DNA of 64,000 nt from an uncultured archaeon. GTDB lineage: Archaea > Nanobdellota > Nanobdellia > Pacearchaeales > GW2011-AR1. The notes under the pieces are model-generated. The model saw only the letters and a list, made by a program, of their open reading frames with translations, was not told the origin of the DNA and did not search any database. The stretch lies in assembly GCA_902385655.1 (NCBI GenBank), contig CABMGO010000003.1:112456-176455 (forward strand). The letters are read 5' to 3'. This document shows positions 27,613 through 39,801 of this stretch, in pieces. A program made the translations under genes and the position numbers. Each line of letters begins with the position of its first letter. The first letter of the stretch is position 1.

Positions 27613-28125
27613 TTATTCTTCCTGTTCCTCGTTTATTTCTGGCATTTCCAGTTCTGGTTCAGCCTGTCTTGGTTTAGAAGTATATTCGTTTAAACCGATT
27701 GTTTTTACTTCTTCAACTTTGATTGCGTCTAAGAAATCTCTTCCTTTCTTTGTTAATCTTCTTCCGAATTGAGAACCAGTTATTTTTTCTACAAGTCCAG
27801 CTTTTTCAGCTTGCTGTAACATAACTCTTAACATTTTACCGGATGATTTTTTGAATCTTGCAGGTTTTACTCCTCTGTTTTTTCTTCCGCCGTATCTTGT
27901 TCTTAATCTTTCAACACCAACTACGCCTTGAATATATAATTGTCTTAAAATAGAAGCTGTTCTCGTGTACCAGAAATCTGCTTCTTCAGGAACTCTTTGT
28001 TTTGAAACTCCAGTTTTTACGTAGAAAGACCATTCTGGAGCTTTTATTTCAGGAATGCCTTTTAGAGCTTCTGCTAAAGCAACGTTAAATGCTTGTGGCT
28101 CTTTTGAAAATATTGTTTTTGCCAT
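27613..28125 (-). CDS. rps19e: 30S ribosomal protein S19e with acidic C-terminal tail
   Basis: APEWSFYVKTGVSKQRVPEEADFWYTRTASILRQLYIQG...RYGGRKNRGVKPARF...QQAEKAGLVE. ATG at 28125 preferred. Confidence 0.9.
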   Translation of the reverse strand: MAKTIFSKEPQAFNVALAEALKGIPEIKAPEWSFYVKTGVSKQRVPEEADFWYTRTASILRQLYIQGVVGVERLRTRYGGRKNRGVKPARFKKSSGKMLRVMLQQAEKAGLVEKITGSQFGRRLTKKGRDFLDAIKVEEVKTIGLNEYTSKPRQAEPELEMPEINEEQEE

Positions 28126-28218
28126 TATTTTAAGTGTGCTCGTTGTGAAACGATAAATTGTCAACTTCTTTCGAAGGACTTGGACACAATAATGTGTTAG
28201 TTTGAGGGTTTATAAATG

Positions 28219-28746: not shown

Positions 28747-29700
28747 ATGTTGGAAAGAAAGAAGGTAGGTCTTGCACTTGGGGGTGGCGGTGCGAGAGGA
28801 ATTGCGCATATTGGAGTTCTGAAGGCTTTAGAAAAACATAAAATTCCGATAGATTTTATTTCGGGAACTAGTATCGGTGCTTTGATTGGAGCAATGTACT
28901 CTGCTCAACCAAATGCTAAGAAGTTAGAGAAAGAAATTCTTGAAACTAAGTGGCAAGATTTGTTTGATTATAAAATCCCTAGCGATGGTCTCATAAAAGG
29001 AATGAAGATAGAAAAGTTTCTTGAAGAAAAATTGGACAAATTAAAATTTAATCAATTGAAGATTCCTCTTTTTGTGACTTCCTATGATCTCGAGAAAAAG
29101 CAAGAAGTTATATTTCAAAAGGGAGATGTTGCTGCCGCAATTAGAGCAAGTATATCTATCCCCGGGATATTTGTACCTGCGGAGAACAGTGGGCGTTTGT
29201 TAGTGGATGGAGGGATTGTGGACTTAATTCCTGTGGAAATATTAAGAAAGAAAGGTGCAGAAAGTATTATTGCAGTAAACGCAGATTATATCCGAGAGAA
29301 AAAACCAATATTGGGACAAAATTCTGTTCCTAGTTATGGAAAGAGAAAAATTCCAGGAATAATTCATACACTTACTAAGTCTTTACAAGTAATTGAGGCT
29401 GAAGCTTCGAAAACCGAGTTGAGTATAAGCAGACCAGATCTACTCATAAATCTAAACTTAGAAGAAATTCCGACTCTGGACTTTTCTAACATGAAAAAAT
29501 TGATTAGGAAAGGAGAATTAGCGACCAACAGAACTATAAAACAGTTGAAGAAACTTACAAACCCGAATCCGATAAAAGAAATTTTAGAAGGAATAAGTTC
29601 AATTCCACTTGTTAAAGGAGTTGAGAAAAATATTGGTAAAGTTGCGGAAGATATCAGAGAGCTTGCGGTTGGAAAAAGCTCACCAGCCGATAAAAGTTAA
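28747..29700 (+). CDS. Patatin-like phospholipase
   Basis: GLALGGGGARGIAHIGVL (oxyanion GGGxRG), GTSIGA (GxSxG), VDGG (catalytic Asp). Confidence 0.85.
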   Translation: MLERKKVGLALGGGGARGIAHIGVLKALEKHKIPIDFISGTSIGALIGAMYSAQPNAKKLEKEILETKWQDLFDYKIPSDGLIKGMKIEKFLEEKLDKLKFNQLKIPLFVTSYDLEKKQEVIFQKGDVAAAIRASISIPGIFVPAENSGRLLVDGGIVDLIPVEILRKKGAESIIAVNADYIREKKPILGQNSVPSYGKRKIPGIIHTLTKSLQVIEAEASKTELSISRPDLLINLNLEEIPTLDFSNMKKLIRKGELATNRTIKQLKKLTNPNPIKEILEGISSIPLVKGVEKNIGKVAEDIRELAVGKSSPADKS

Positions 29701-29707
29701 GGAAGAA

Positions 29708-30121
29708 TCACTCCTGTCCTGCATTTTTACCAAGCTCGTGAGTTGTTCCCTGCGGAACAAAATTCAAAATATCTTGTTTTTTTACTTTTATTTCTTTAAA
29801 TTTTTTTACGCCAAAAGTCCCAGTTTTCATATCTTTGTCTTTTTTCACGTCATTGCTTAAGAAGTAATGAACCAAAACATCTTTTTTATTGTCTCTCCAA
29901 TCTTGAGAATGTTTTGCGCACATAACAGCCGCTTCGTAAAGTTCTTTTTCTGAAACTTCTACAGAATTTGATTTTATATTAGCAAACGGACTTCCAGGTT
30001 TTGAAGTGTGTAAAAGAATTTCCCCATTTTTTGCTTGTCCAATTAACTCTTCATTTGTTTCCGCAGATTTTCCTAGGAAAACTTGTTTCCCAGTTGTTGT
30101 TAAATATTTACGTAGGCTCAT
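29708..30121 (-). CDS. DUF814 / NFACT-R-like RNA-binding domain protein
   Basis: VFLGKSAETNEELIGQAKNGEILLHTSKPGSPFANIK. The last ~17 codons are encoded by repeat copy D. Confidence 0.6.
   Translation of the reverse strand: MSLRKYLTTTGKQVFLGKSAETNEELIGQAKNGEILLHTSKPGSPFANIKSNSVEVSEKELYEAAVMCAKHSQDWRDNKKDVLVHYFLSNDVKKDKDMKTGTFGVKKFKEIKVKKQDILNFVPQGTTHELGKNAGQE
29709..29760 (+). repeat. Copy D of the dispersed repeat family, overlapping the 3' end of the DUF814 gene
   Basis: cactcctgtCCTGCATttttaccaagctcgtgagttGTTCCctgcGGAACaa. Closest to copy E at 53161-53218. Confidence 0.7.
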
Positions 30122-30957
30122 CCTATTTTCTTTAATTCCTCAAGCCTTTTATTTGCATCGATTGACTGGGAGAAGATTTTCCAAAATATTTTTGAGAGCC
30201 ATTCTGTCCAATCTTTATCTTTTATTGTGTAGAAAATAAATATCTTCTTGTCAAGTTCGTGTGTTCTACCTGTGGGCTCTTTTATCTCTTTTATTCTGAA
30301 TAGTTTTCCATCAACAATAAATGCCCTTATTGGATGCTCTTTGTGGTGAATTTCAATTAATTCTTTTCCGTTTTTAAAATTGAGAGCCAATATTTTCTCA
30401 ATATTTTCTCTGCCAGCCAAGTCTACTCTACAAACAATTTTTATGCTGATTCCTTTTTTTACAAGTTTGTCTAGAACTTCTAACAGGTCATATTTTTTAT
30501 TTTTTAAATTTGTAAAAGATAAATTTCCTGAGAAAATTAATATTTGTTTTTCTGCACTTGATAAGAATTTAGCCAGATTTTCAATGTCCGTATCCTCTTC
30601 TTTTATTGCTTTTTGAATTTCTGCAGATTTCGATTTGTCTGGAACATGTTGAAATATATCAAAAGCGGAAAAATCTTCTTTTCTTCTTGCACGCATTATA
30701 TCTTCTTCTAGTTTTTCTTGGAAAATACTGGAAGAAATCTTTTCAACACTTGACCAGAAGACAATTTTCAAAGCCCCCCTAGTGCCTTCTCTAAAAACTC
30801 TTGTTGAAACTGTTCCGTAATCTTTTTGGATTTCATCTATATATCTGTCTGCAGTTCTCCAGCTTATATCTAAATGTTCAGCAATTTCTTGAATAGAACG
30901 AGGTTTAGAATAGATAAAATCTTCAATTTTTTTTATTTCTACGTTGTTCAGTACCAT
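30118..30957 (-). CDS. HTH transcriptional regulator with PLD-like/TrmB-C-like C-terminal domain (tentative)
   Basis: N-terminal KPRSIQEIAEHLDISWRTADRYIDEIQ (HTH). The C-terminal domain contains HHKEHPIRAFIVDGK. Divergent from the 31054 operon. Confidence 0.55.
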   Translation of the reverse strand: MVLNNVEIKKIEDFIYSKPRSIQEIAEHLDISWRTADRYIDEIQKDYGTVSTRVFREGTRGALKIVFWSSVEKISSSIFQEKLEEDIMRARRKEDFSAFDIFQHVPDKSKSAEIQKAIKEEDTDIENLAKFLSSAEKQILIFSGNLSFTNLKNKKYDLLEVLDKLVKKGISIKIVCRVDLAGRENIEKILALNFKNGKELIEIHHKEHPIRAFIVDGKLFRIKEIKEPTGRTHELDKKIFIFYTIKDKDWTEWLSKIFWKIFSQSIDANKRLEELKKIG

Positions 30958-30989
30958 AGTGCTAGTAGGGTTTTATGCTATTTAAGCTT

Positions 30990-31038
30990 TTGCAACACCA
31001 TGGACAAAATTTGTGCAGCAAAATGTATATTGTTGCAA
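30990..31038. promoter_or_regulatory. Inverted repeat TTGCAACA...TGTTGCAA in the divergent promoter region
   Basis: 8-bp arms at 30990-30997 and 31031-31038, bracketing TGTATAT (TATA-like), about 16 nt before the ATG at 31054. Confidence 0.4.
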
Positions 31039-31053
31039 TGTCTATGAGAGAGT

Positions 31054-31560
31054 ATGAAACAGAAAGAATTACAAAAGCAACTTGAAAGAATTGCAAAGAA
31101 AGTTGAGAAAAAAGAAATTGTAAAAAAGGCTGAGGAAGTTGCTAGAAAGCATGGAGATTACAAATCTGAAGTGTATCCATATCGGATAAAAGTTCACTAT
31201 AGATTTTCTGGAAAAGATTATGTTGGTGGCGAAATTGACATTAAAGGAAGTTCTGGATGGAGTGACTTTGGTGGAGAAGATCAAGAAATTTTTTATAATA
31301 GAAAAAGAGTTTTTTATGTTTCAACCTCTCCTGCATACACAGATTTTGGAACGCCGCAAGTAAAAGAACAACCAAATCAAGTAAAAATGGGCGAACTCTA
31401 TTTGCATGAATACTCGCCGGGACAATGGGAAACTCAGTTGAATAGAATCTATAAAAATGGTCCGAAAAAAGAAAAACCAAAAGTTGTAAAACCTGAAGAA
31501 AGAGAAGTAGAAAAATCTAAGCTGGAAGAATTGGCAGCGAGGTTGCCTTTAAAGATATGA
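31054..31560 (+). CDS. Hypothetical protein, paralog of 32877..33380
   Basis: N-terminal K/E helix then a beta-rich domain. EIDIKGSSGWSDFGG aligns with RIDLGGTSGYDGGYN in the paralog. Confidence 0.6.
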   Translation: MKQKELQKQLERIAKKVEKKEIVKKAEEVARKHGDYKSEVYPYRIKVHYRFSGKDYVGGEIDIKGSSGWSDFGGEDQEIFYNRKRVFYVSTSPAYTDFGTPQVKEQPNQVKMGELYLHEYSPGQWETQLNRIYKNGPKKEKPKVVKPEEREVEKSKLEELAARLPLKI

Positions 31561-32096
31561 TAAAGCGACCGTCCAGAATTGTCTTTACTGGCGGACCGTG
31601 TAGCGGAAAAACAACATTGCTTGAACAACTTGCTCTAAAAGGTTTAACTATTGTTCCTGAAACAGCAAGAATAATTATTGAACAAGAACAGAAAAGAGAT
31701 TCTGAAATTTTACCTTGGAGAAATTTATATGGTTTTCAAGAGGAAGTTGCGAGAGTACAATTAGAACAAGAACATTCTTATGAAGGCAGACATTTATTTT
31801 TAGATAGAGGAGTTGTAGACGGACATGGTTTCTCATTAAATGGGAAAATTCCTACTCCTGAAATAATTATGGATTTTGGAAAGAGCAGATACAATCTTGT
31901 TTTTCTTCTTGATCCTTTGCCAAATTACAAAAATGACTCATCTAGAAAAGAAACTCCTCAAATGGCTAGAAAAATACATGACAGACTTGATGAAGCATAT
32001 AGACATTTTGGATATCAACCAATTAGAATTCCAGTGCTTGGATCTGTAGAAGAAAGGGCAAACTATGCAACTAAATTATTGGAGAGAGTTTTATGA
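31557..32096 (+). CDS. AAA_28-type P-loop NTPase/kinase-like protein
   Basis: Walker A FTGGPCSGKTTLLEQL, then VPETARIIIEQE...LPWRN...FLDRGVVDGHGF, typical of the NadR-C/AAA_28 ATPase family. ATGA overlaps on both sides. Confidence 0.7.
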   Translation: MIKRPSRIVFTGGPCSGKTTLLEQLALKGLTIVPETARIIIEQEQKRDSEILPWRNLYGFQEEVARVQLEQEHSYEGRHLFLDRGVVDGHGFSLNGKIPTPEIIMDFGKSRYNLVFLLDPLPNYKNDSSRKETPQMARKIHDRLDEAYRHFGYQPIRIPVLGSVEERANYATKLLERVL

Positions 32097-32374
32097 GTTG
32101 GGGCGATGCCTTCATTGAAATAGAAGCAGAACGAAAAAGAAAGGAGAGAGCACCGATGGAAAAAAAATTGGAAAGATCATTTCCAAAACTTAACCAATAT
32201 GAAAGACTTTGTGCTTCTTTAAAGACGACTGAACTTCACGGAGATTGTTATGGCACTTGCAATGACGAAGAAAATCGAGGATCTTGCCCAGCATTTAAAC
32301 ACAGTTTAATGGCTAGTTATGTTGAGGTAAATGAGATTCACGAATGCCCTTATAGGAAGGAGAGAAGATCATGA
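32093..32374 (+). CDS. Small Cys/His-rich protein (93 aa)
   Basis: HGDCYGTCNDEENRGSCPAFKH ... HECPY. ATGA overlaps on both sides support translation. Confidence 0.55.
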   Translation: MSWGDAFIEIEAERKRKERAPMEKKLERSFPKLNQYERLCASLKTTELHGDCYGTCNDEENRGSCPAFKHSLMASYVEVNEIHECPYRKERRS

Positions 32375-32880
32375 GTAACGGAAAGGAAGTAGAAGTGAAA
32401 ATTGAAATTGATAGAGAGAAAAAATTTGAACAGATTTATGAGATGATTGGAAGACCAGATTGGACTCTACAAAGAAATTATATTTTTGCATTTTCTGGAA
32501 ACATTCTTCGATTAAGATATGAAGATAGGACTGGAAAAGCCTACTTAACATTCAAAGGAAAAGATATTGGCGAAACTTTTAATTGTAGAGAAGAGAAGGA
32601 GAGCGATATACCTGCGGAGCTGTTTAGAAGTATAGCGAGAAGTCTGTCAAAGAGACCAATACAAGAATTCTCTAATCAACCACATTACTATGAAAAAAGT
32701 CGTGCACAAGCAAACTATGGGAATTGTGTTGTCTGTCTAGATAATTTTTTTGGAACATATTACTGCGAGATTGAAGGCGATGAAAAAAGCATTAAAAAGC
32801 TCATACGAAAATTTGGTCTTGAAGATTTCCCTCGTGAAAAAAGAAGTTATCTTAAAATGTTAATGGAGAAACAAAAATGA
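32371..32880 (+). CDS. CYTH-domain triphosphate tunnel metalloenzyme (CyaB/ThTPase-like)
   Basis: EVEVKIEI (EXEXK), LRLRYE, LTFKGK, CREEKE, YEKSRAQ, VCLDNFFGTYYCEIEGD. Confidence 0.8.
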   Translation: MSNGKEVEVKIEIDREKKFEQIYEMIGRPDWTLQRNYIFAFSGNILRLRYEDRTGKAYLTFKGKDIGETFNCREEKESDIPAELFRSIARSLSKRPIQEFSNQPHYYEKSRAQANYGNCVVCLDNFFGTYYCEIEGDEKSIKKLIRKFGLEDFPREKRSYLKMLMEKQK

Positions 32881-33380
32881 AAAGTCTTGAAGAGTATCTT
32901 AAAAAAAGAGAAGCTGAACTTGAGAAAATAAGAAAAGAAGTCGGACTTTTAAGAAGCGCGAAAATGCCTTTGAAGATCAGAGAGTATTCTAACGGAATTG
33001 GACTAATTTCTGAAGATTATTCTTTGGCAGAAGATTTTGAAATAAAAAAGAGAAGAATAGATCTTGGCGGAACAAGTGGTTATGATGGAGGCTATAATTC
33101 GGGGAGATATGAAAGTTATCCGCGATTTTATTTTAACTTAGAATTTGAAGGACTTGTCGAACCAGTTTATATTGAACATGAAGGATTTGAAAAAGATGAA
33201 AGAATTGTGATTCGTAGTGTTACTGTAACTCATGGCACTAAAGAATATTCTAGTATGAATTCAACAAATGAGAATTTCGTTGATGTGCGAAAAACTTTTA
33301 ATTTTTTTAGAGAAAGAGGAGTGAAACCTGTGCTATTAGATCGTCTTGCAAAGAGAATTAAAGAGGCGGAGGAATTTTGA
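32877..33380 (+). CDS. Hypothetical protein, paralog of 31054..31560
   Basis: Same architecture and shared ID(I/L)xGxSG(W/Y) motif. Confidence 0.6.
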   Translation: MKSLEEYLKKREAELEKIRKEVGLLRSAKMPLKIREYSNGIGLISEDYSLAEDFEIKKRRIDLGGTSGYDGGYNSGRYESYPRFYFNLEFEGLVEPVYIEHEGFEKDERIVIRSVTVTHGTKEYSSMNSTNENFVDVRKTFNFFRERGVKPVLLDRLAKRIKEAEEF

Positions 33381-33388
33381 GGTGAAAA

Positions 33389-34255
33389 GTGGCATGCATT
33401 GAAAAAATTTATAGCGTATCGGCACTAGTTGGTGATGGGAGATGCAATGCCAATTGTGGATTTTGTGCTGGAAAATATTTGAGACCACAAGCAAAACCTA
33501 ATCCTAATTATGAAAAAAATTTAGAGGCTGCAATAAAACTATCTGCGCGTTATGGCGGCTGGTCCCTATCTTTAACTTCTAGTGGTGAGCCAACTTGTGA
33601 CCCGGCTTCTTTGACCAGAGCATTAGACATTTATAAAAAATGTGCGGACCAGGGAGCATATTTTCCAAATGTGAATTTATTTACTAATGGAATTTTATTA
33701 GGTGATGAAGAATTTTGTAAACAATATCTTCCAGGGTGGAAAGAGCGAGGATTGACAAACGTTGCACTTTCAATACATCATCCGGATGAAAAAATGCAAG
33801 CAGAAGCATACGGTCTTCAAAGTTATCCGCAATTTGAAAAAATTGTTGCGAATGTAAGAGAACAGGAATTAGGAGTTAGAGCTACCTTGTTATTAAGAAA
33901 AGATGGAATAGACGACTCAAGTAGTTATGGTTCGGCAATTGAAGATTTAGTTGAGAAAGGAATTGATAATATAACTTCTTGGCCAATTGGAAATCCGGAT
34001 GGAACAAGAAATGAGTTTACTCCTTCCAGACTAGGACTTTTTGGAATTAGAAGATGGTTGCACAAAAATGCTAAACTCTGTCACGGGCATGAGTGGGGCG
34101 GAGGAGTTTATGATTACAAAGGAAATATTTTGAGAATAACAGATTATGTTACGAAACATGATCCGAAAAAAGATTTTGTCAGACAGCTTGTTGTTTTTCA
34201 AGATGGGACTGTTGCTTATTCGTGGATAAAGGAAGGTGCACTATGTATGAAGTAA
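33389..34255 (+). CDS. Radical SAM enzyme, compact (288 aa), paralog 1
   Basis: GDGRCNANCGFCAGK (CX3CX2C), SSGEPTCDP, FTNGILL. GTG start 5 nt after a GAGGTGA Shine-Dalgarno-like sequence. Confidence 0.8.
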   Translation: MACIEKIYSVSALVGDGRCNANCGFCAGKYLRPQAKPNPNYEKNLEAAIKLSARYGGWSLSLTSSGEPTCDPASLTRALDIYKKCADQGAYFPNVNLFTNGILLGDEEFCKQYLPGWKERGLTNVALSIHHPDEKMQAEAYGLQSYPQFEKIVANVREQELGVRATLLLRKDGIDDSSSYGSAIEDLVEKGIDNITSWPIGNPDGTRNEFTPSRLGLFGIRRWLHKNAKLCHGHEWGGGVYDYKGNILRITDYVTKHDPKKDFVRQLVVFQDGTVAYSWIKEGALCMK

Positions 34256-35058
34256 AACCTGAAGAAAAGTTAACAAGTTTATCTATATTAGTGGGCACAG
34301 GAAATTGTAATGCTAATTGTGGATTTTGCGCTGGGAAACCATTAAGAAAATATGCTCCAAAAGCAGATGGACAGTTTGATGAGGCCCTAGTTAGAAAAAC
34401 TCTGGCAGATTGTTTCAAACGAGGAGCAAGTTATCTTTCTTTAAGCAGTTGTGGTGAACCGACGCTATCGCCTCTTTCAGTAACTAAAGTTTTAGGTCTT
34501 GTTCAAGAATGTGCAAATGAAGGAATGAGTTATTCTCCAGTTAATCTTTATTCAAATGGTATTCGAATAGGAGAAGATAAAAAATTCTCTGAAAAGTATT
34601 TGCCACTTTGGAAAAATCTTGGACTTACTACAATGTATATTACAGTTCATGATATCGATGAAGAGAATAATGCAAGAGTTTATGGAGTTAAATCTTATCC
34701 TTCTCTCGAGGATGTTTTTTCGCGAGTTAGAGATGCTGAATTGTCAATTAGGACTAATTTGGTTTTGAGTCGCGGAGCAGTTGATTCTTATGAAAGATTT
34801 ATTGAGGCAATTGATTATTTGCAAAAAATTGGTGCAGATAATATTTCTGCTTGGCCACTGCGTGATGAAACTGATGGAATTGATCTTGCACGTTCTCCGG
34901 ATAAATCTGAATTAGTAAGAATACATGATTTTGTTGAAAGAGATACTAGTGGAAGATTAAGGATGATTTTTGAAGAAAAACCAACACACTATCATTCTGA
35001 AAAGAAATTGACATTATTCCCAGATGGAAGTCTTGCGAGTTCTTGGTGTAATAGATAA
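34243..35058 (+). CDS. Radical SAM enzyme, compact (about 271 aa), paralog 2
   Basis: GTGNCNANCGFCAGK, SCGEPTLSP, YSNGIRI, colinear with paralog 1. ATG at 34243 overlaps the paralog 1 end by 13 nt. Confidence 0.8.
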   Translation: MYEVKPEEKLTSLSILVGTGNCNANCGFCAGKPLRKYAPKADGQFDEALVRKTLADCFKRGASYLSLSSCGEPTLSPLSVTKVLGLVQECANEGMSYSPVNLYSNGIRIGEDKKFSEKYLPLWKNLGLTTMYITVHDIDEENNARVYGVKSYPSLEDVFSRVRDAELSIRTNLVLSRGAVDSYERFIEAIDYLQKIGADNISAWPLRDETDGIDLARSPDKSELVRIHDFVERDTSGRLRMIFEEKPTHYHSEKKLTLFPDGSLASSWCNR

Positions 35059-35700
35059 TTAGAAAACGTCTTCGGAAGTTAATTCTTTTGCTGGAGTTTC
35101 TGATGCTTCTCCACCTTTCTCTTTTAATCTTTTCAAAGCTGCACGAACATTTTTGTTCAATTGCTTCATAGATTCTTCTAATTGTTCCTTATTCTTTGTT
35201 CCAGTACATACAAGTTTTCCGTTGCTGAAAAGCAAGAAAGTTGCAGTTGGGTCTTCGAGTTTGTAAACTAAGCCTGGGAATTGTTCAGGTTCATATTCTG
35301 TATTTTCTAATTCCAAAGAAAGTGTGTTTAAGTTTAAGTCAAGATTGATACTTCCTGAAGCTACAATGTTTTGAACATTAATCTTTGGTTTGATTTTTAC
35401 ATGAACACCAATTTTCTTTAATTGTTTTATAACTTGATCAATGACTTCTCTGACTTGGGCAATAGATTTAACTCCAGTACAAACAAGATTTCCGGATGAG
35501 AAAACTAAAACTGCAGATTTAGGTTGTTTGATTCTTAAAACAAGTCCTGGAAATGTTTCAGGATTATACTCTGTATTTGGCTGTGTTCTTGCTAATTTTG
35601 ATAAAGAAACTTCTTCTTCAAGAGAGGTTGTAGCGACGATATTTTGAACTTTTAAAGAATCTTCAGGCTTCTCAACTTTTTTTGATTTTGCTGCTGCCAT
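35059..35700 (-). CDS. tbp: TATA-box binding protein
   Basis: Two TBP repeats (VQNIVATTSLEEEVSL...FPGLVLRIKQPKSAVLVFSSGNLVCTG and VQNIVASGSINLDLNL...FPGLVYKLEDPTATFLLFSNGKLVCTG) and an acidic tail. Confidence 0.95.
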   Translation of the reverse strand: MAAAKSKKVEKPEDSLKVQNIVATTSLEEEVSLSKLARTQPNTEYNPETFPGLVLRIKQPKSAVLVFSSGNLVCTGVKSIAQVREVIDQVIKQLKKIGVHVKIKPKINVQNIVASGSINLDLNLNTLSLELENTEYEPEQFPGLVYKLEDPTATFLLFSNGKLVCTGTKNKEQLEESMKQLNKNVRAALKRLKEKGGEASETPAKELTSEDVF

Positions 35701-35804: not shown

Positions 35805-36764
35805 ATGCTAGAAGAAAAAGTTAACTGGTTAATAACTCTGAGATGTAATGAAAATTGTAGTTACTGTTTTAGACCTGGTTCTGTGGAAGAATATCAGGAT
35901 AAAATTCTTTTTGCAAAAAAAATTGCTGATGCTAAACTCAAAAAAGTTACTATCTCTGGAGGCGAGCCAACAATAATAGAAGATTTACCCGAGATTCTAA
36001 AAATTTTGCATGATTCTGGAGCGTATGTAAGCCTTCACACGAATGGGAGATTATTAACTCCTAAACTTGTGGAAAGTTTTGGAAAATTTATTGATGATGT
36101 GGCGATTCCCGTGGATAGTGTCTATCCAGAAGTACAAAGAGAATTAAGGCCAAAGGGATCGGTAGAAATATTTGACAGAGCACATGATTTGCTTTTGTCT
36201 TCTGGAATTAATGTCGGAGTTCATACGGTTGTAACTCCATTAAATATACGAAAACTTAATTCTCTTTATAATCATGTAAATAAAAAAGATTTCAAATATT
36301 GGAAATTTTATCAGGAAGAAAATGCGGCTTCAAAATTTGGAGATTCTTCTTGTGATGTAGAGTCATTTTTGTCAGACTTTGTTTTAACATGGAGAAATAT
36401 GAAAAGAAGATTAAATGATCCTAGAGTTAGTTTTGTCGCAAGTCATAATCGCATGCCTTATGTTTTTCTTAAACCAAATGGAGAAATAAGCTATGTTGCA
36501 TGGTTTGAAGAGAAAATGCACTCTTTTGGAAATTTGGCTCGCGGAGATTTAAGAAAATTTTATGGAGAGATTGAGAAACATATAGGAAGCCAGAATGATG
36601 CTGACAAATTTTTCGAGGGCAGATGGTCTTTGCCATTATGGGTAAGATTGTCAGGTATAGAAACTGATCCAGAGTTATCTAAAATGCAATTAGATGGACT
36701 TACAAAGTCTGAAAGAAGAAAATTTTGGAGACTTGCACACGCCTATGAGGAAGTTGGGGAATAG
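35805..36764 (+). CDS. Radical SAM protein
   Basis: LRCNENCSYCF (CX3CX2C), ISGGEPTII, HTNGRLL. Confidence 0.75.
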   Translation: MLEEKVNWLITLRCNENCSYCFRPGSVEEYQDKILFAKKIADAKLKKVTISGGEPTIIEDLPEILKILHDSGAYVSLHTNGRLLTPKLVESFGKFIDDVAIPVDSVYPEVQRELRPKGSVEIFDRAHDLLLSSGINVGVHTVVTPLNIRKLNSLYNHVNKKDFKYWKFYQEENAASKFGDSSCDVESFLSDFVLTWRNMKRRLNDPRVSFVASHNRMPYVFLKPNGEISYVAWFEEKMHSFGNLARGDLRKFYGEIEKHIGSQNDADKFFEGRWSLPLWVRLSGIETDPELSKMQLDGLTKSERRKFWRLAHAYEEVGE

Positions 36765-37710: not shown

Positions 37711-39801
37711 ATGCCAGGTGACGATTTTGAGTTTAATTCGGGAGTAGGCGAATCAGAAGAAGAGGAAGCAATGCCTATTTTGGAAAATGATAAGGTCACT
37801 CAAGATGAGTTGATAATTGAGGCAAAGAATTTTTTTAACACTCAGAAAAAACAACTTGGTGAGAGTGCTAAGACTGGAGAACATGTAGTAAGAGTTGATT
37901 TTACGGAACTTTCTGAACAATCTCCTGAATTGGCTGAGAGAGTTATTATGAAACCAGATGACACTCTTAAAATCTTGGAAATCGCATTGCATGAGGGAGA
38001 TCTTGTTAAGGACGCGAGAGTCAGATTTACAAATTTAGCGAAAACGCAGAATGTTAAAATAAGAAATATCAGAGCAAAGAATCTTAACACTATGATTGCT
38101 ATAGAAGGAATTGTTCGTCAGGCTTCAGAAGTTAGACCTAAAGTAAGTAATGCGCGTTTCGAATGCCCTGCATGTGGGACTATCCACTCGGTTTTACAGA
38201 TTGATGAAAAATTTAGGGAACCTTCTAGATGTTCTTGTGGAAGAAGAGGTGGATTTAGGGAATTGGAAAAAGAAATGGTTGACGCTCAGAGATTAATAAT
38301 AGAGGAGTCTCCCGATGCACTTTCTGGAGGAGAACAACCAAAAAGAATGACCGTATTTTTGAAAGAAGATTTAGTAGAACCAAAAATGGAAGAGAGGACT
38401 ACTCCCGGTTGTAAAGTCCAAGTTATTTGTGTTTTGAAAGAAGTTCCTATTCCTCACAAGACTGGAGGTATTATGACTAGATTTGAGCTAGCTGTTGAAG
38501 CAAATAATCTCACCCCTATGGAAGAGAGCTTTGATGATGTAAAAGTATCAGACAAGGATGAAGAAGAAATTAGAGAACTTGCTGCAGACCCAAGAATTAT
38601 ACAAAAACTTGCAGACAGTATTGCACCATCTGTTTGGGGTTATCCTGAAATTAAAGAATCTTTAGCACTACAATTATTTGGAGGAGTACAAAAAAGAAGA
38701 TCAGACGGAACTCAGACAAGAGGAGACATTCACGTTTTACTTGTGGGAGATCCGGGAGTTGCGAAATCGGTTATGTTAAAATTCATTTCTGGAATTGCTA
38801 CAAAAGGAAGATACGTTTCGGGTAAATCGGCTTCGGGTGCGGGACTTACTGCTACAGTAGTTAAAGATGAATTTTTGAGGGGCTGGGCTTTAGAAGCTGG
38901 AGCGATGGTTTTGTCTAACAAAGGTCTTGTTTGTATTGACGAGTTGGAAAAAATGGATGAAAATGATAGGTCGACTATGCACGAAGCTATGGAGCAGCAG
39001 ACAGTTACTATTTCGAAAGCTAATGTTCAGGCAACACTTAGGGCTCAAACTGCAGTTCTTGCAGCTGCAAACCCGAAATTCGGGCGTTTTGATCCACATG
39101 AGATGATTGCAAAGCAAGTTAATCTTGCTCCTTCTTTACTTAACAGATTTGACGTTCTTTTTATCCTAAGAGATCTCCCTAGTAAAGAAAGAGACGAAAG
39201 TATTGCGGCACACGTTTTACAAGAACACAAACAAGATGTTCATAGAGATGTGATAGAAAAAGATCTTTTAAGAAAATACATAGCTTATGCAAAACAAAAG
39301 TGTCACCCGGTTTTATCTTCTGAAGCAGCAAATAAAATTAAACATTTTTATGTAAGCTTAAGAAATCAACCAGTTATCGGAGGAGACAGCGAAGCAATAA
39401 AACCAATTCCAATTTCTGCGAGACAGTTAGAGGCACTCGTGAGATTGGCGGAAGCAACTGCAAAAGCTAGACTCGGAAAAACAGTAACTGAGGAAGATGC
39501 TGTAAGAGCAATTAATTTGATGAGATATTATATGAGCCAGGTTGGTTATGACGAGGAAACAAAGAGTTTTGATATTGATAAAATTTCAGGAAATCCTGCT
39601 TCAAAGAGAAATAAAATCCACATTGTGAAAGAAATTCTGGAAGATTTGGAAAATAGACTTGGAAAATTAATTCCGGAGGAAGAAGTTGAGAAAGCATCTG
39701 ACGGAAAGATTACTGCAAGTGAGTTGGAAGAAGTAATGGATAAACTTGTTAGGGCTGGAGATCTTTTCAGACCTAGAAAAGGTTTTGTGCAAAGGATGTA
39801 A
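37711..39801 (+). CDS. mcm: MCM replicative helicase
   Basis: Zn finger CPACG...CSCG, Walker A IHVLLVGDPGVAKS, Walker B CIDELEKMD, arginine finger SLLNRFD, SARQLEALVRLAEA. Confidence 0.95.
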   Translation: MPGDDFEFNSGVGESEEEEAMPILENDKVTQDELIIEAKNFFNTQKKQLGESAKTGEHVVRVDFTELSEQSPELAERVIMKPDDTLKILEIALHEGDLVKDARVRFTNLAKTQNVKIRNIRAKNLNTMIAIEGIVRQASEVRPKVSNARFECPACGTIHSVLQIDEKFREPSRCSCGRRGGFRELEKEMVDAQRLIIEESPDALSGGEQPKRMTVFLKEDLVEPKMEERTTPGCKVQVICVLKEVPIPHKTGGIMTRFELAVEANNLTPMEESFDDVKVSDKDEEEIRELAADPRIIQKLADSIAPSVWGYPEIKESLALQLFGGVQKRRSDGTQTRGDIHVLLVGDPGVAKSVMLKFISGIATKGRYVSGKSASGAGLTATVVKDEFLRGWALEAGAMVLSNKGLVCIDELEKMDENDRSTMHEAMEQQTVTISKANVQATLRAQTAVLAAANPKFGRFDPHEMIAKQVNLAPSLLNRFDVLFILRDLPSKERDESIAAHVLQEHKQDVHRDVIEKDLLRKYIAYAKQKCHPVLSSEAANKIKHFYVSLRNQPVIGGDSEAIKPIPISARQLEALVRLAEATAKARLGKTVTEEDAVRAINLMRYYMSQVGYDEETKSFDIDKISGNPASKRNKIHIVKEILEDLENRLGKLIPEEEVEKASDGKITASELEEVMDKLVRAGDLFRPRKGFVQRM

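Follow-up and report, generated by a model that had tools for sequence, protein, structure and literature searches.

In the radical SAM (rSAM) enzymes MoaA and viperin, a hydrogen is abstracted from a sugar, at C3' in the former and at C4' in the latter. The locus described here lies in a 64-kb window (the whole stretch of DNA analysed, whose numbering is used throughout) and is built around g6 (33389-34255, + strand, GTG start codon, 288 aa), the core rSAM enzyme. For its AF2 model (pLDDT 84.4), Foldseek ranked MoaA first (E 2e-12, TM 0.59-0.63) and CTP- or UTP-bound viperins next (E 3e-9 to 1e-8), the top matches reaching a TM of only about 0.6 at ~15% identity, with RiPP and sugar rSAM enzymes close behind. 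The model places this single-domain rSAM enzyme in the MoaA/viperin structural neighbourhood. Domain profile search returned only Radical_SAM for g6 (36.8 bits, cutoff 29.5), with neither SPASM nor any other domain in g6 or its paralog g7, and g6 lies far below all NCBIfam family cutoffs; no described family fits, in keeping with the candidate novel system of the initial annotation. The motif G-x-G-x-CNANCGFCAGK is carried by g6 and g7 alike, the g6 cluster cysteines being C19, C23 and C26, and g6 has four extra invariant cysteines: C3, C110, C230 (in CHxHxWGGG) and C286 (in the C-terminal GAxC).

The relationship between the twin enzymes proposed in the initial annotation was upheld, g6 and g7 (34243-35058, + strand, 271 aa from ATG) sharing 36% identity over 279 residues (E 3e-57). 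g7 likewise matches Radical_SAM only (37.8 bits, cutoff 29.5) and retains the CxxxCxxC motif and a C-terminal WC. Its 287 homologs are about 50-69% identical, and with only 14% of positions at least 95% conserved it evolves faster than g6. About 17 archaeal loci, three CPR loci (L034, L075, L076) and four phages (L045, L046, L049, L055) have it immediately 3' of g6.

Both genes belong to a cluster of seven ORFs, all on the + strand, coupled by ATGA overlaps at 31557, 32093, 32371 and 32877, with 8 nt separating g5 from g6 and with g6 and g7 overlapping by 13 nt, exactly as first described. The GC content of the cluster (0.33-0.35) is the same as that of its flanks, so that it does not form a compositional island. 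The cluster is real, but as a set of seven it is not conserved. The comparison covered loci from 38 species-level genomes and 16 viral contigs together with 10 metagenome loci, with g6 as the constant element. Gene order and content differed from locus to locus, and g1, g3 and g5, which have no family match in Pfam, NCBIfam, PADLOC or PHROG, proved to be rare or unique to the source genome and are lineage-specific accessories. For g1 (31054-31560, +, 168 aa) a single distant homolog exists, occupying the equivalent place in the L012 cluster (26% identity, E 3e-8). g5 (32877-33380, +, 167 aa) belongs to a small family with homologs in only 5 of the 38 loci (L005, L006, L016, L018 and L026; 36-58% identity), whose members always adjoin g4 or g6 and which formed only 2 clusters in a 5.8-billion-protein search. 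The suggestion that g1 and g5 are paralogs did not survive comparison (BLASTP E 0.083 over 9 residues; hhalign probability 0.2% for the g5 family profile against g1). The genome-specific g3 (32093-32374, +) is indeed a 93-aa Cys-rich ORF with 6 Cys, ATGA-coupled at both ends; it has no homolog in the 38 related loci, its slot being filled elsewhere, e.g. in L005, by unrelated small ORFs.

The identities given to the remaining two genes proved correct. g2 (31557-32096, +) is an AAA_28 P-loop protein resembling nucleoside/nucleotide kinases (PF13521, 8.5e-38, 130.6 bits, cutoff 27; Walker A GGPCSGKT), found in 13 species-level archaeal loci by tblastn and in 16 loci by ORF clustering. g4 (32371-32880, +) is a CYTH/triphosphate tunnel metalloenzyme (PF01928, 2.6e-6, 27.8 bits, cutoff 23.2) with an intact ExExK motif and invariant E6, E8, K10, R47, K62, E75, E77, E133 and E135, whose family profile matches Sulfolobus acidocaldarius SaTTM (7ns8) at 6e-19 and also Pyrococcus CYTH structures. 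It occurs in 8 loci and, as AAA_28-CYTH fusions, in L009 and L021 (10 in total). The initial annotation would have been refuted by two findings together, rSAM proteins belonging to a well-characterised housekeeping family and a gene combination not conserved outside this genome: the exact combination is indeed not conserved, but the rSAM proteins fall outside every characterised housekeeping family.

What is conserved in archaea is g6 together with a divergent gene, g0, with or without g7. g6 was present in 38/38 genome loci, and its pairing with g0 was almost always seen in archaea. g0 (30118-30957, - strand) encodes a 279-aa regulator with an N-terminal winged HTH (HTH_11 match at 9.3e-5 by profile search; weak match to the ArsR-like PH1932 in the PDB, E 0.02) and a conserved C-terminal domain (FSGNLS ... 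H-x-x-Q-P-L-R-x-x-I-x-D) with weak PLD/DpdK matches only. In 28 archaeal loci it occurs upstream in divergent orientation (37-67% identity). Roughly 96 bp separate g0 from the operon, and within them a conserved 29-nt operator-like element has a TATA box on either side. The box TATTTAAG (30979-30986, -), ~25 nt upstream of the g0 start, is the putative g0 promoter and would yield a leaderless transcript; TATTTAAG / TATATAAA is position-conserved in most archaeal intergenic regions. The box ATGTATAT (31023-31030, +), which precedes the g1 ATG by about 25-30 nt, is the putative operon promoter and would give a transcript with little or no leader; related loci keep (A)TGTATAT / AGTATAT at the same offset. 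Between them, the element TTGCAACACCATGGACAAAATTTGTGCAG (30990-31018, +; family consensus GTaCAACACTATGGACAAAATTTGTaCAG) has a PWM score of 39.6 bits and is the sole site of at least 12 bits within the window; in 20+ archaeal loci it is likewise the sole high-scoring site per locus, always in the interval between g0 and the first + strand gene. g0 probably binds this predicted operator. Both g0 and the operator-like element, the most conserved partners of g6, had been missed in the initial annotation.

Among the 607 homologs of g6, the best 120 are 75-100% identical to it, and identity remains at 63-84% across DPANN archaea, CPR bacteria and phages. Over 52 sequences, conservation reaches at least 95% at 35% of positions; the archaeal sequences form a single, short-branched clade. 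In the same genomes identity is 74-81% for g6 but only 37-67% for g0 and 47-54% for g7; g6 evolves far more slowly than its neighbours and is among the slowest-evolving genes there.

In CPR bacteria g6 lies divergently beside NrdR, the dNTP-sensing repressor, and often occurs alone with it, without other cluster genes. NrdR adjoins g6 in 8/8 CPR genome loci while the other neighbours vary (TIGR00244, E 7e-21 to 5e-17, yet below the NCBIfam cutoff), and a reverse search starting from NrdR recovered g6 as the divergent neighbour in 6/10 metagenome loci. In five CPR loci, tandem NrdR-box-like palindromes overlap the putative g6 promoter: the two are spaced by 42 bp, or about four turns of the helix, at constant offsets, and the second directly adjoins a TTTTAAT -10-like element that precedes the g6 ATG by 57-64 nt. 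Taken singly, the boxes score modestly (shuffle p 0.02-0.2), and no NrdR box was found in L019. Since the source genome lacks NrdR, the dNTP link is transferred from these bacterial orthologs.

The recurrent partners of g6 (g7, the AAA_28 kinase, CYTH, a dCTP-deaminase-like protein with a Tmk-like kinase, and NT5C) all handle nucleotides, which, with the MoaA- and viperin-like fold, agrees with the nucleotide-centred system first envisaged. Directly upstream of g6 are found a dCTP-deaminase-like gene (PF22769, 4.4e-36), a Tmk/dNK-like kinase and another rSAM gene in L012 and L014, and an NT5C-like deoxynucleotidase with a kinase in L030. A 45%-identity relative has HIT, HD/HD_assoc_2 and HAD genes on its flanks and, within a few kb on the upstream side, genes for dCMP deaminase, NUDIX and CYTH proteins. 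Phage copies sit in replication/nucleotide modules with split PolB, FEN, an AAA_33 kinase and NADAR. Our preferred reading, held tentatively and with slightly less than even confidence, is that g6 is a regulated, nucleoside-triphosphate-directed radical enzyme for DNA-precursor supply, rather than a defence or RiPP enzyme. It may possess a SAM-dependent ribonucleotide-reducing activity; a canonical RNR, also present in one carrier genome, runs counter to this.

A viperin-type role, in which g6/g7 turn an NTP into a chain-terminating or toxic analogue, fed or trimmed by the kinase and CYTH, for cell defence or for inter-virus or host-shutoff warfare by phages, corresponds to the antiviral use initially suggested and now appears unlikely. 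Viperins are among the best structural matches of g6, weak pVip matches occur (E 3e-4 to 1e-2), pVip clusters typically include neighbouring kinases and phosphatases (PADLOC 'viperins associated with kinases'), and the 45%-identity relative lies in a HIT-rSAM-HD-HAD-HAD string. However, the viperin models, with a cutoff of 180 bits, give g6 and g7 only 13-21, far behind g9, a separate nearby rSAM protein standing alone (92.7 bits). Defence genes are usually patchy and fast-evolving, unlike the extremely conserved g6 in its fixed, regulated locus outside any compositional island; the orthologs wired to NrdR and the phage-borne copies argue in the same direction.

Quite unlikely is a role in NAD or nucleoside-cofactor salvage, whereby g2 would phosphorylate nicotinamide riboside or a related nucleoside, CYTH hydrolyse a triphosphate by-product, and the rSAM enzymes synthesise or repair a cofactor of the pyridine or adenosyl type. 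Three observations point away from dNTPs and toward NAD: NadR ribosylnicotinamide-kinase domains are the closest match of the g2 family profile (1.8e-8), ahead of adenylate and deoxyguanosine kinases; two independent phage contexts have distant g6 relatives next to NadE, NAPRTase, NMNAT and nicotinamidase; and SaTTM, the archaeal CYTH ortholog that best matches g4, belongs to a conserved TTM-SAM hydrolase-NMNAT operon. An NAD(P)HX dehydratase also lies downstream in L007. Yet the NAD-linked rSAM proteins are only 31-33% identical to g6, g2 scores higher against the phage 'thymidylate kinase' family (best PHROG, 1.2e-11) than against NMNAT/NadR, and neither g6 alone with NrdR in CPR bacteria nor its deoxynucleotide partners (Dcd, Tmk, NT5C) fit a salvage role.

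Modification of tRNA, rRNA or DNA bases, e.g. phage-type hypermodification or a deazapurine-like pathway, would accord with the strong conservation of g6, as is typical for enzymes with macromolecular substrates, with the exonuclease and SpoU-like genes that, besides polymerase, adjoin phage g6 copies, and with the weak DpdK/PLD-like matches of g0, but is improbable given a 288-aa protein with no RNA- or DNA-binding domain, no co-occurring transglycosylase/methylase set, and NrdR control and partner enzymes that point to free nucleotides. Decidedly improbable is that g6 supplies or installs the radical for an RNR encoded elsewhere, class III (NrdD-type) or B12-starved class II: NrdR control is what nrdG would be expected to show and in L029 a class-II-like RNR follows g6-g7 at a distance of about 3.5 kb, but g6 matched neither NrdG nor PflA models at E up to 0.1, its 50 best structural matches include no glycyl-radical-enzyme activase, no NrdD was seen by motif scan in about 1.07 Mb of loci, and to our knowledge 65-80% conservation between domains is not normal for activases. 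Maturation of g3 or another peptide by the twin enzymes, raised at first on account of the Cys-rich ORF, is highly implausible despite the translational coupling of g3 and the presence of SkfB, anSME and EpeE among structural matches, being effectively refuted by the absence of g3 from other loci, where g6/g7 are conserved, and disfavoured by the lack of SPASM, twitch or RRE domains and of an adjacent small ORF family at CPR g6 loci.

Under the preferred DNA-precursor reading, the locus would be one transcription unit controlled by the dedicated divergent g0, through its winged HTH and sensor-like domain. g6 would bind a nucleoside triphosphate or deoxynucleotide, and its 5'-deoxyadenosyl radical would abstract a sugar hydrogen by analogy with MoaA and viperin, the extra cysteines forming a second Fe-S site or acting as redox thiols. 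The product would supply or condition the pool of DNA precursors. g7 would be a facultative partner, performing a second radical step or forming a heteromer, g2 and g4 a kinase/triphosphatase pair tuning the phosphorylation state of substrate or product, and g1, g3 and g5 lineage-specific accessories. g6 is an uncharacterised, very slowly evolving rSAM protein that the tiny symbiotic DPANN archaea share with CPR bacteria and with the viruses of both; the folds nearest to it are those of MoaA and viperin, both of them NTP-using rSAM enzymes.

The seven co-directional + strand genes of the cluster were recovered by ORF calling exactly at the positions originally assigned to them: g1 (31054-31560; 168 aa), g2 (31557-32096; AAA_28, E 8.5e-38), g3 (32093-32374; 93 aa, six cysteines), g4 (32371-32880; CYTH, E 2.6e-6, above cutoff), g5 (32877-33380; 167 aa), g6 (33389-34255) and g7 (34243-35058). 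The ATGA string of the four overlaps was found at 31557, 32093, 32371 and 32877, the gap between g5 and g6 measures 8 nt and the overlap of g6 with g7, counted from the g7 ATG, 13 nt, all as the initial annotation had described; the start codon of g6 is GTG, preceded by GAGGTGA. The last two genes encode radical SAM (rSAM) paralogs (36% identical, E 3e-57) in which PF04055 was the sole domain found, with no SPASM or other domain, again as proposed. This anatomy was thus largely right, but the paralogy also claimed for g1 and g5 dissolved (BLASTP E 0.083 across 9 residues; profile-profile probability 0.2%), and the boundary of the system, its antiviral emphasis and the alternative of RiPP maturation fared no better, as detailed below. 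For g1, g3 and g5 there was no match at all in Pfam, NCBIfam, PADLOC or PHROGs.

The segment is archaeal and of low GC content (~34%), with best database matches to "uncultured archaeon", Woesearchaeota and Nanoarchaeia, and the composition of the cluster is that of its flanks, where ribosomal protein S19e (27613-28164, - strand), TBP (35059-35700, -) and MCM (37711-39801, +) are encoded. The g7 stop codon (35056-35058) abuts that of the convergent TBP gene (35059-35061) with zero spacer, and no terminator-like signal was seen at this junction (35056-35061). The cluster region gave no Rfam match, and sigma-70 and terminator scans of it stayed at background level, in line with its archaeal origin. 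Two genes upstream of g0, the divergent regulator-like gene of the cluster, lies a patatin-like phospholipase (28747-29700, +; PF01734, 3.7e-37) with weak PADLOC "phospholipase effector" matches, which is not kept beside the cluster elsewhere. Beyond the TBP gene, a third rSAM gene of the window, g9 (35805-36764, +; 319 aa, CNENCSYC), resembles viperins much more closely than g6 and g7 do (PADLOC pVip 5.9e-27, 92.7 bits; NCBIfam viperin_w_prok 80.7 bits, below the cutoff of 180) and may be a divergent archaeal viperin-family enzyme. Third rSAM genes near g6 (g9 and those of the related loci L012, L014, L016 and L045) belong to mutually unrelated families and were kept out of the system.

Scanning a single genome for each GTDB species yielded 38 related loci, onto which the window proteins were mapped by tblastn, the neighbouring ORFs being clustered. 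In these loci g6 is found without exception (38/38), and g0 (30118-30957, -), which was missing from the original gene list, occurs in 28 archaeal ones. The other genes are less regular: g7 follows g6 directly in about 17 loci, g2 is found in 13, g4 in 8 and in two more as a fusion with g2 (L009 and L021; hmmsearch E 4e-19 and 6.5e-15), g5 in 5 and g1 as one distant relative only, in L012, with no homolog of g3 in any of the 38. Unrelated "slot" proteins of L016 and L032 showed no significant match to g5. The order is g2-g6-g4-g5 in L006, and L003, L008 and L025 have g0 and g6 only. With order and content both varying, the "seven-gene system" is but one version of a variable cluster whose core is g0 and g6.

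The core gene is also the most constrained one. The 120 best of 607 g6 homologs all have 288 aa and 75-100% identity, and in the same genome pairs identity by tblastn was 74-81% for g6, 37-67% for g0, 47-54% for g7 and 32-63% for g2. In a set of 52 non-identical archaeal, CPR bacterial and viral sequences, at least 95% conservation was reached by 35% of g6 positions versus 14% in g7. Besides the cluster cysteines C19, C23 and C26, four more are invariant in g6: C3 (within M-x-C-I-E-K-I-Y-S-V-S-A), C110, C230 (C-H-x-H-x-W-G-G-G) and C286 (G-A-x-C at the C-terminus). Two irregular copies were encountered: in L039 (2642-3504) g6 is split into two overlapping pieces, by a frameshift or an assembly error, and in L040 (4790-5473) a hybrid gene of 227 aa has g6-type first ~28 residues (MACIEKIYSVSAL...) and is g7-type in the rest, which looks like a deletion fusing g6 and g7.

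In archaea, the divergent 279-aa g0 protein begins with a winged HTH (HTH_11, 9.3e-5) that weakly matches the ArsR-like PH1932 structure. Its C-terminal domain is strongly conserved in the family alignment and, apart from weak PLD/DpdK-like hints, nothing was retrieved for it from Pfam, NCBIfam, PADLOC or PHROGs; the single-sequence AF2 model (pLDDT 47.8) was too low for use. The layout between g0 and the operon is fixed in more than 20 genomes, the conserved intergenic elements being, in window coordinates, a TATTTAAG-type box (30979-30986), a 29-nt element of consensus GTaCAACACTATGGACAAAATTTGTaCAG (30990-31018) and a ATGTATAT-type box (31023-31030), after which the first gene starts with a TACAAGTCTAT-like stretch (more than 20 genomes). 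A position weight matrix built from 16 sites of the 29-nt element found a single site in the 64-kb window (39.6 bits, no other of at least 12 bits) and one site per related locus, always between g0 and the operon. Because it lies upstream of both inferred leaderless starts, the element is read here as a putative DNA operator for both divergent promoters, of which g0 would be the dedicated regulator. In the stretch 31032-31048, GTTGCAA (31032-31038) forms the inverted repeat of TTGCAAC (30990-30996, the 5' end of the operator), the pair bracketing the operon TATA box; related loci present a direct-repeat version instead (TACAACAC ... TACAAGTC).

Orthologs 64-76% identical to g6 are encoded by CPR bacteria (Collierbacteria, Moraniibacteriota, Paceibacterota, Dojkabacteria and unclassified CPR MAGs), and there the adjacent gene codes, in eight loci out of eight, for a ~150-aa protein with a Zn-ribbon and an ATP-cone. 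This neighbour is divergent in seven of them, and co-directional and upstream in L019; its best NCBIfam match is NrdR (E 7e-21 to 5e-17), under the curated cutoff as expected from CPR divergence, and the remaining neighbours of g6 differ from phylum to phylum. When metagenomes were scanned with NrdR as seed, g6 was the divergent neighbour at six of ten loci, the others being short contigs or having different neighbours, in a scan made up mostly of g6-positive or very short contigs. NrdR, which responds to ATP/dATP, represses ribonucleotide reductase (RNR) operons together with a small number of replication genes, and is to our knowledge the only known dedicated dNTP-sensing repressor. Parcubacteria-type intergenic regions carry, at fixed offsets, two NrdR-box-like palindromes matching the core C-w-A-t-A-T-a-T-w-G, reportedly the consensus of Rodionov and Gelfand from 2005. 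In L033, L075, L077, L078 and L079 a distance of 42 bp separates their centres, and the second one directly adjoins a -10-like element, TTTTAAT, that lies 57-64 nt ahead of the g6 ATG. Single-site p values were 0.018 (L027) and 0.04-0.08 (Collierbacteria), with no significance elsewhere, and the positional conservation of the palindromes is the stronger argument. Taken together, the known targets of NrdR, the adjacency and the palindromes point to g6 as a probable member of the NrdR regulon in CPR bacteria, an association that concerns these bacterial orthologs and not the archaeal window itself. In the Dojkabacteria locus (L019 7358-8867, on a 749-kb contig) g6 falls inside the archaeal clade and no NrdR box was detected, the gene being probably a recent archaea-to-CPR transfer.

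The same gene is carried by viruses. Sixteen IMG/VR contigs (GC 27-49%, up to 501 kb) encode g6 with 62-75% identity, often accompanied by g7 or by a 228-aa short form. Their Pfam-confirmed neighbours include a FEN nuclease and an AAA_33 kinase (L049), NADAR (L043) and a split PolB (L055), to which a second NADAR-like gene (L049) and DnaQ-like exonucleases (L048, L057) can be added by eye only. In L055 (6328-11414; UViG_3300033074_001413) the family-B DNA polymerase occupies two ORFs, the exonuclease with the N-terminal polymerase part and then the remaining polymerase, with g6, g7 and an unknown 222-aa ORF in between, a layout suggesting that the two rSAM genes move together as a mobile cassette. 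In phage L058 (8001-8336) g6 is truncated after 111 aa. No g6 homolog was found in 50,697 GenBank phage genomes or in any PHROG family. In a neighbour-joining tree, the archaeal copies of g6 make up a single clade of short branches, inside which the Dojkabacteria copy falls, parcubacterial g6 is interleaved with phage sequences and the Collierbacteria copies stand near those of megaphages. Such a topology agrees with strongly constrained vertical inheritance in archaea and with exchange among CPR bacteria and phages.

The genes found around g6 are repeatedly concerned with nucleotides. Directly upstream of it, L012 and L014 have a Tmk/dNK-like P-loop kinase, a small rSAM and a dCTP-deaminase-like gene (PF22769, 4.4e-36), and L030 an NT5C-like deoxynucleotidase and an AAA_18 kinase. 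The AAA_28/NadR-C-like kinase g2 scored 130.6 bits against a cutoff of 27 (Walker A GGPCSGKT); its family profile comes nearest to NadR ribosylnicotinamide-kinase domains (1.8e-8; best PDB matches), followed by adenylate and deoxyguanosine kinases, and its best PHROG is "thymidylate kinase" (1.2e-11). It is not a trifunctional NadR (TIGR01526, 23.7 versus 341 bits), possessing the RNK-like domain only, without HTH and NMNAT. The triphosphate tunnel metalloenzyme g4 scored 27.8 against 23.2 bits, with ExExK present as EVEVK and E6, E8, K10, R47, K62, E75, E77, E133 and E135 invariant; assignment to class IV adenylate cyclase CyaB was rejected (TIGR00318, 30.6 bits, cutoff 57.95). The natural AAA_28-CYTH fusion proteins, which lie between g0 and g6 (L009 6914-7993, 359 aa; L021 983-2026, 347 aa), provide Rosetta-stone evidence for a joint action of the kinase-like protein and the tunnel enzyme. 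Distant rSAM relatives of ~290 aa (243 clusters, E below 1e-10, none at any NCBIfam cutoff) have contexts that are also nucleotide-related, namely a HIT-rSAM-HD/HD_assoc_2-HAD-HAD string, preceded at a distance of a few kb by genes for dCMP deaminase, NUDIX and CYTH proteins, and, in phages, the NAD-salvage surroundings described below.

The AF2 model of g6, computed from a 40-sequence alignment of g6 and g7, reached pLDDT 84.4 and pTM 0.84, with disorder only in the cysteine-bearing N- and C-terminal tails. Foldseek against the PDB placed MoaA first (1TV7 / 2FB2; E 2e-12, TM 0.59-0.63), viperins bound to CTP or UTP second (E 3e-9 to 1e-8), and then SkfB, BlsE, GDGT-MAS, anSME, EpeE, HydE and DesII, sequence identity being ~15% throughout. 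Both MoaA and viperin act on the ribose of nucleoside triphosphates. By sequence, g6 and g7 belong to the radical SAM superfamily (PF04055, 36.8 and 37.8 versus 29.5 bits; both with CNANCGFC), and nothing beyond it was above cutoff in Pfam, NCBIfam, PADLOC or PHROGs. The cutoffs of the MoaA and viperin families are missed by g6 by an order of magnitude: TIGR02666 gave 16.8 (g6) and 21.3 (g7) versus 284 bits, and NF038283 19.4 and 21.1 versus 180 bits (PADLOC pVip E 3e-4 to 1e-2). MoaA was also rejected by features, given the extra invariant cysteines scattered in g6 and the lack of MoaC/Moco genes in any locus. Searching PDB sequences with the g6/g7 profile returned only weak N-terminal matches to BioB and PqqE, and the BFVD viral structure library generic rSAM matches only, at 17% identity or less.

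The comparative data show an operon with a regulator gene of its own, a core rSAM under exceptional constraint, association with nucleotide (especially deoxynucleotide) enzymes and association with NrdR. The favoured reading, held tentatively and at close to even confidence, is that g6 would be an NTP- or dNTP-directed radical enzyme for DNA-precursor supply, with g7 as an optional paralogous partner, g2 and g4 as a phosphorylation-state module and g1, g3 and g5 as lineage-specific add-ons. That g6, with or without g7, provides a SAM-dependent, RNR-unrelated route to dNTPs or dTMP is a bolder proposition and an unlikely one. Here g6 could be a ribonucleoside-triphosphate 2'-deoxygenase in which, after 3'-H abstraction as in MoaA, the 2'-OH would be lost and reduction by the invariant cysteines would follow; alternatively, it could be a folate-independent thymidylate-forming enzyme. 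This would amount to a compact B12- and O2-independent dNTP route in minimal-genome DPANN archaea, CPR bacteria and their phages, controlled by NrdR in bacteria and by g0 in archaea. A motif scan for RNR, ThyA, ThyX and dUTPase over ~1.07 Mb of loci detected one RNR (L029) and one ThyA-family gene, the latter 5 kb from g6 in phage L057; no RNR was seen among the ten largest ORFs of the window, which spans 64 kb of the 242-kb contig. In L029 (9778-14402; Woesearchaeota JANNSE010000019), the 6 kb that follow g6-g7 downstream include an Elp3-like rSAM-GNAT gene and the class-II-like RNR, whose large subunit (PF02867 8.3e-46, TNPCGE motif) lies ~3.5 kb from the pair. Such co-occurrence of a class-II-like RNR and a ThyA-family gene with g6 speaks against a strict version in which g6 replaces these enzymes and lowers the probability of the dNTP route, which nevertheless survives it since several RNR classes commonly coexist. 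An RNR of classes I-III, with its ten-stranded alpha/beta barrel catalytic subunit, was rejected as the identity of g6, which has an rSAM TIM-like barrel, PF02867 being found only in the separate L029 gene; judging from the model, any RNR-like role would be analogous, not homologous.

Other explanations were ordered by plausibility, from viperin-like activity through NAD salvage, nucleic-acid modification and RNR activation to RiPP maturation. Synthesis of nucleotide analogues by a viperin-like g6, which would agree with the second class of structural matches and with the antiviral role first emphasized, seems unlikely in view of the conservation of g6, its fixed and regulated locus, the NrdR link, its carriage by phages and the family membership not reached. 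Salvage of NAD or of a nucleoside cofactor is doubtful, but draws on several observations: g2 itself, the distant phage relatives and the operon precedent of Sulfolobus SaTTM, to which the g4 family is closest (6e-19). This triphosphatase (PMC8233210), the nearest solved homolog of g4, is encoded in a conserved TTM-SAM hydrolase-NMNAT operon (bioRxiv 10.1101/2025.08.29.672840). The phage relatives in question, members of the ~290-aa rSAM family 31-33% identical to g6 on phage-like metagenome contigs (L067/L068, L071/L072), occur within NAD-salvage sets with NMNAT-like, NAPRTase, NadE and nicotinamidase genes, a separate association that deserves a study of its own; the CPR, Dcd and NT5C contexts lend no support to salvage. 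Modification of nucleic acids, a function that would place g6 on polymers, is more doubtful still, no nucleic-acid-binding domain being present and the partners indicating free nucleotides. Activation of an RNR could agree with the NrdR link and is improbable, since the activase signature is absent in both sequence and fold: TIGR02495 and TIGR02493 (NrdG/PflA) gave no g6 or g7 match at E up to 0.1, glycyl-radical-enzyme activases were absent among the best 50 Foldseek matches of g6, and no NrdD motif was found in ~1.07 Mb of loci. Maturation of the cysteine-rich g3 as a RiPP, the alternative of the initial annotation, is scarcely credible, as g3 has no homolog in the other 38 loci and SPASM, twitch and RRE domains are absent, only PF04055 being found.

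CPR bacteria and DPANN archaea represent a large share of microbial diversity and have a minimal, host-dependent metabolism, and the source of their DNA precursors is poorly understood. With 288 aa, g6 is among the most conserved CPR/DPANN proteins, has no assigned family and is exchanged with phages. Even when read conservatively, it would represent a new rSAM family directed at nucleotides, with two different regulatory circuits dedicated to it. A single evolutionary origin is at present accepted for ribonucleotide reduction; should g6 make deoxynucleotides or thymidylate, this view would need revisiting, and there would be a bearing on the old idea of "SAM as a poor man's B12". The family members being small, soluble and single-domain, such proposals are directly testable. 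Neither g6/g7 nor the g0 operator was found in curated families, solved structures, defence-system models, phage families or papers, and full-text literature searches yielded no description of the g6/g7 family or of an NrdR-linked rSAM.

Among known systems, the locus is akin to rSAM nucleotide-modifying enzymes with kinase and phosphatase partners. MoaA, a GTP 3',8-cyclase whose radical abstracts the ribose 3'-H, resembles g6 in size, in its NTP substrate (predicted in the case of g6) and in a second metal/cysteine site outside CxxxCxxC; however, it has a C-terminal CxxCx13C auxiliary motif that g6 lacks, having C3, C110, C230 and C286. Viperin and pVip, whose hallmark is the production of 3'-deoxy-3',4'-didehydro-NTPs that protect against viruses, are likewise single-domain proteins of ~280 aa with a CN..CGFC-type motif and an association with nucleotide kinases, whereas the conservation and apparent regulation of g6 are housekeeping-like and phages themselves encode it. 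Compared with NrdR-regulated RNR operons (nrdAB, nrdJ, nrdDG), g6 would stand in CPR bacteria at the position of an NrdR target: it is transcribed divergently to nrdR, and its promoter is overlapped by tandem, helically phased palindromes resembling NrdR boxes. Phages often carry it as an auxiliary gene, as they do RNRs, and Dcd/Tmk-type genes are among its neighbours, but it has no sequence or fold kinship to any RNR class, and a canonical RNR large subunit co-occurs with it in L029. The g2/g4 pair, adjacent in the window and fused in L009 and L021, recalls the P-loop kinase-CYTH proteins TTM1/TTM2 of Arabidopsis, although their kinase is a PRK/uridine-kinase domain and g2 is AAA_28/NadR-C-like. 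The SAM hydrolase and NMNAT partners of the Saci_0718 TTM operon are absent here, the pair sharing instead a predicted promoter with the rSAMs. Enzymes of the AprD4-AprD3, DesII and BlsE type (1,2-diol dehydratase/deaminase), of which DesII and BlsE are among the structural matches of g6, eliminate a hydroxyl or amino group of a sugar at the position adjacent to the radical and offer a precedent for deoxygenation without RNR; they differ in being larger, in acting on sugar nucleotides of antibiotic pathways, in their accessory domains and in lacking an NrdR link. What is unusual in comparison with these systems is that the conservation of g6 is the highest in its genomic neighbourhood, that two independent dedicated regulators, g0 and NrdR, are probably involved, and that the gene is spread over DPANN archaea, CPR bacteria and phages.
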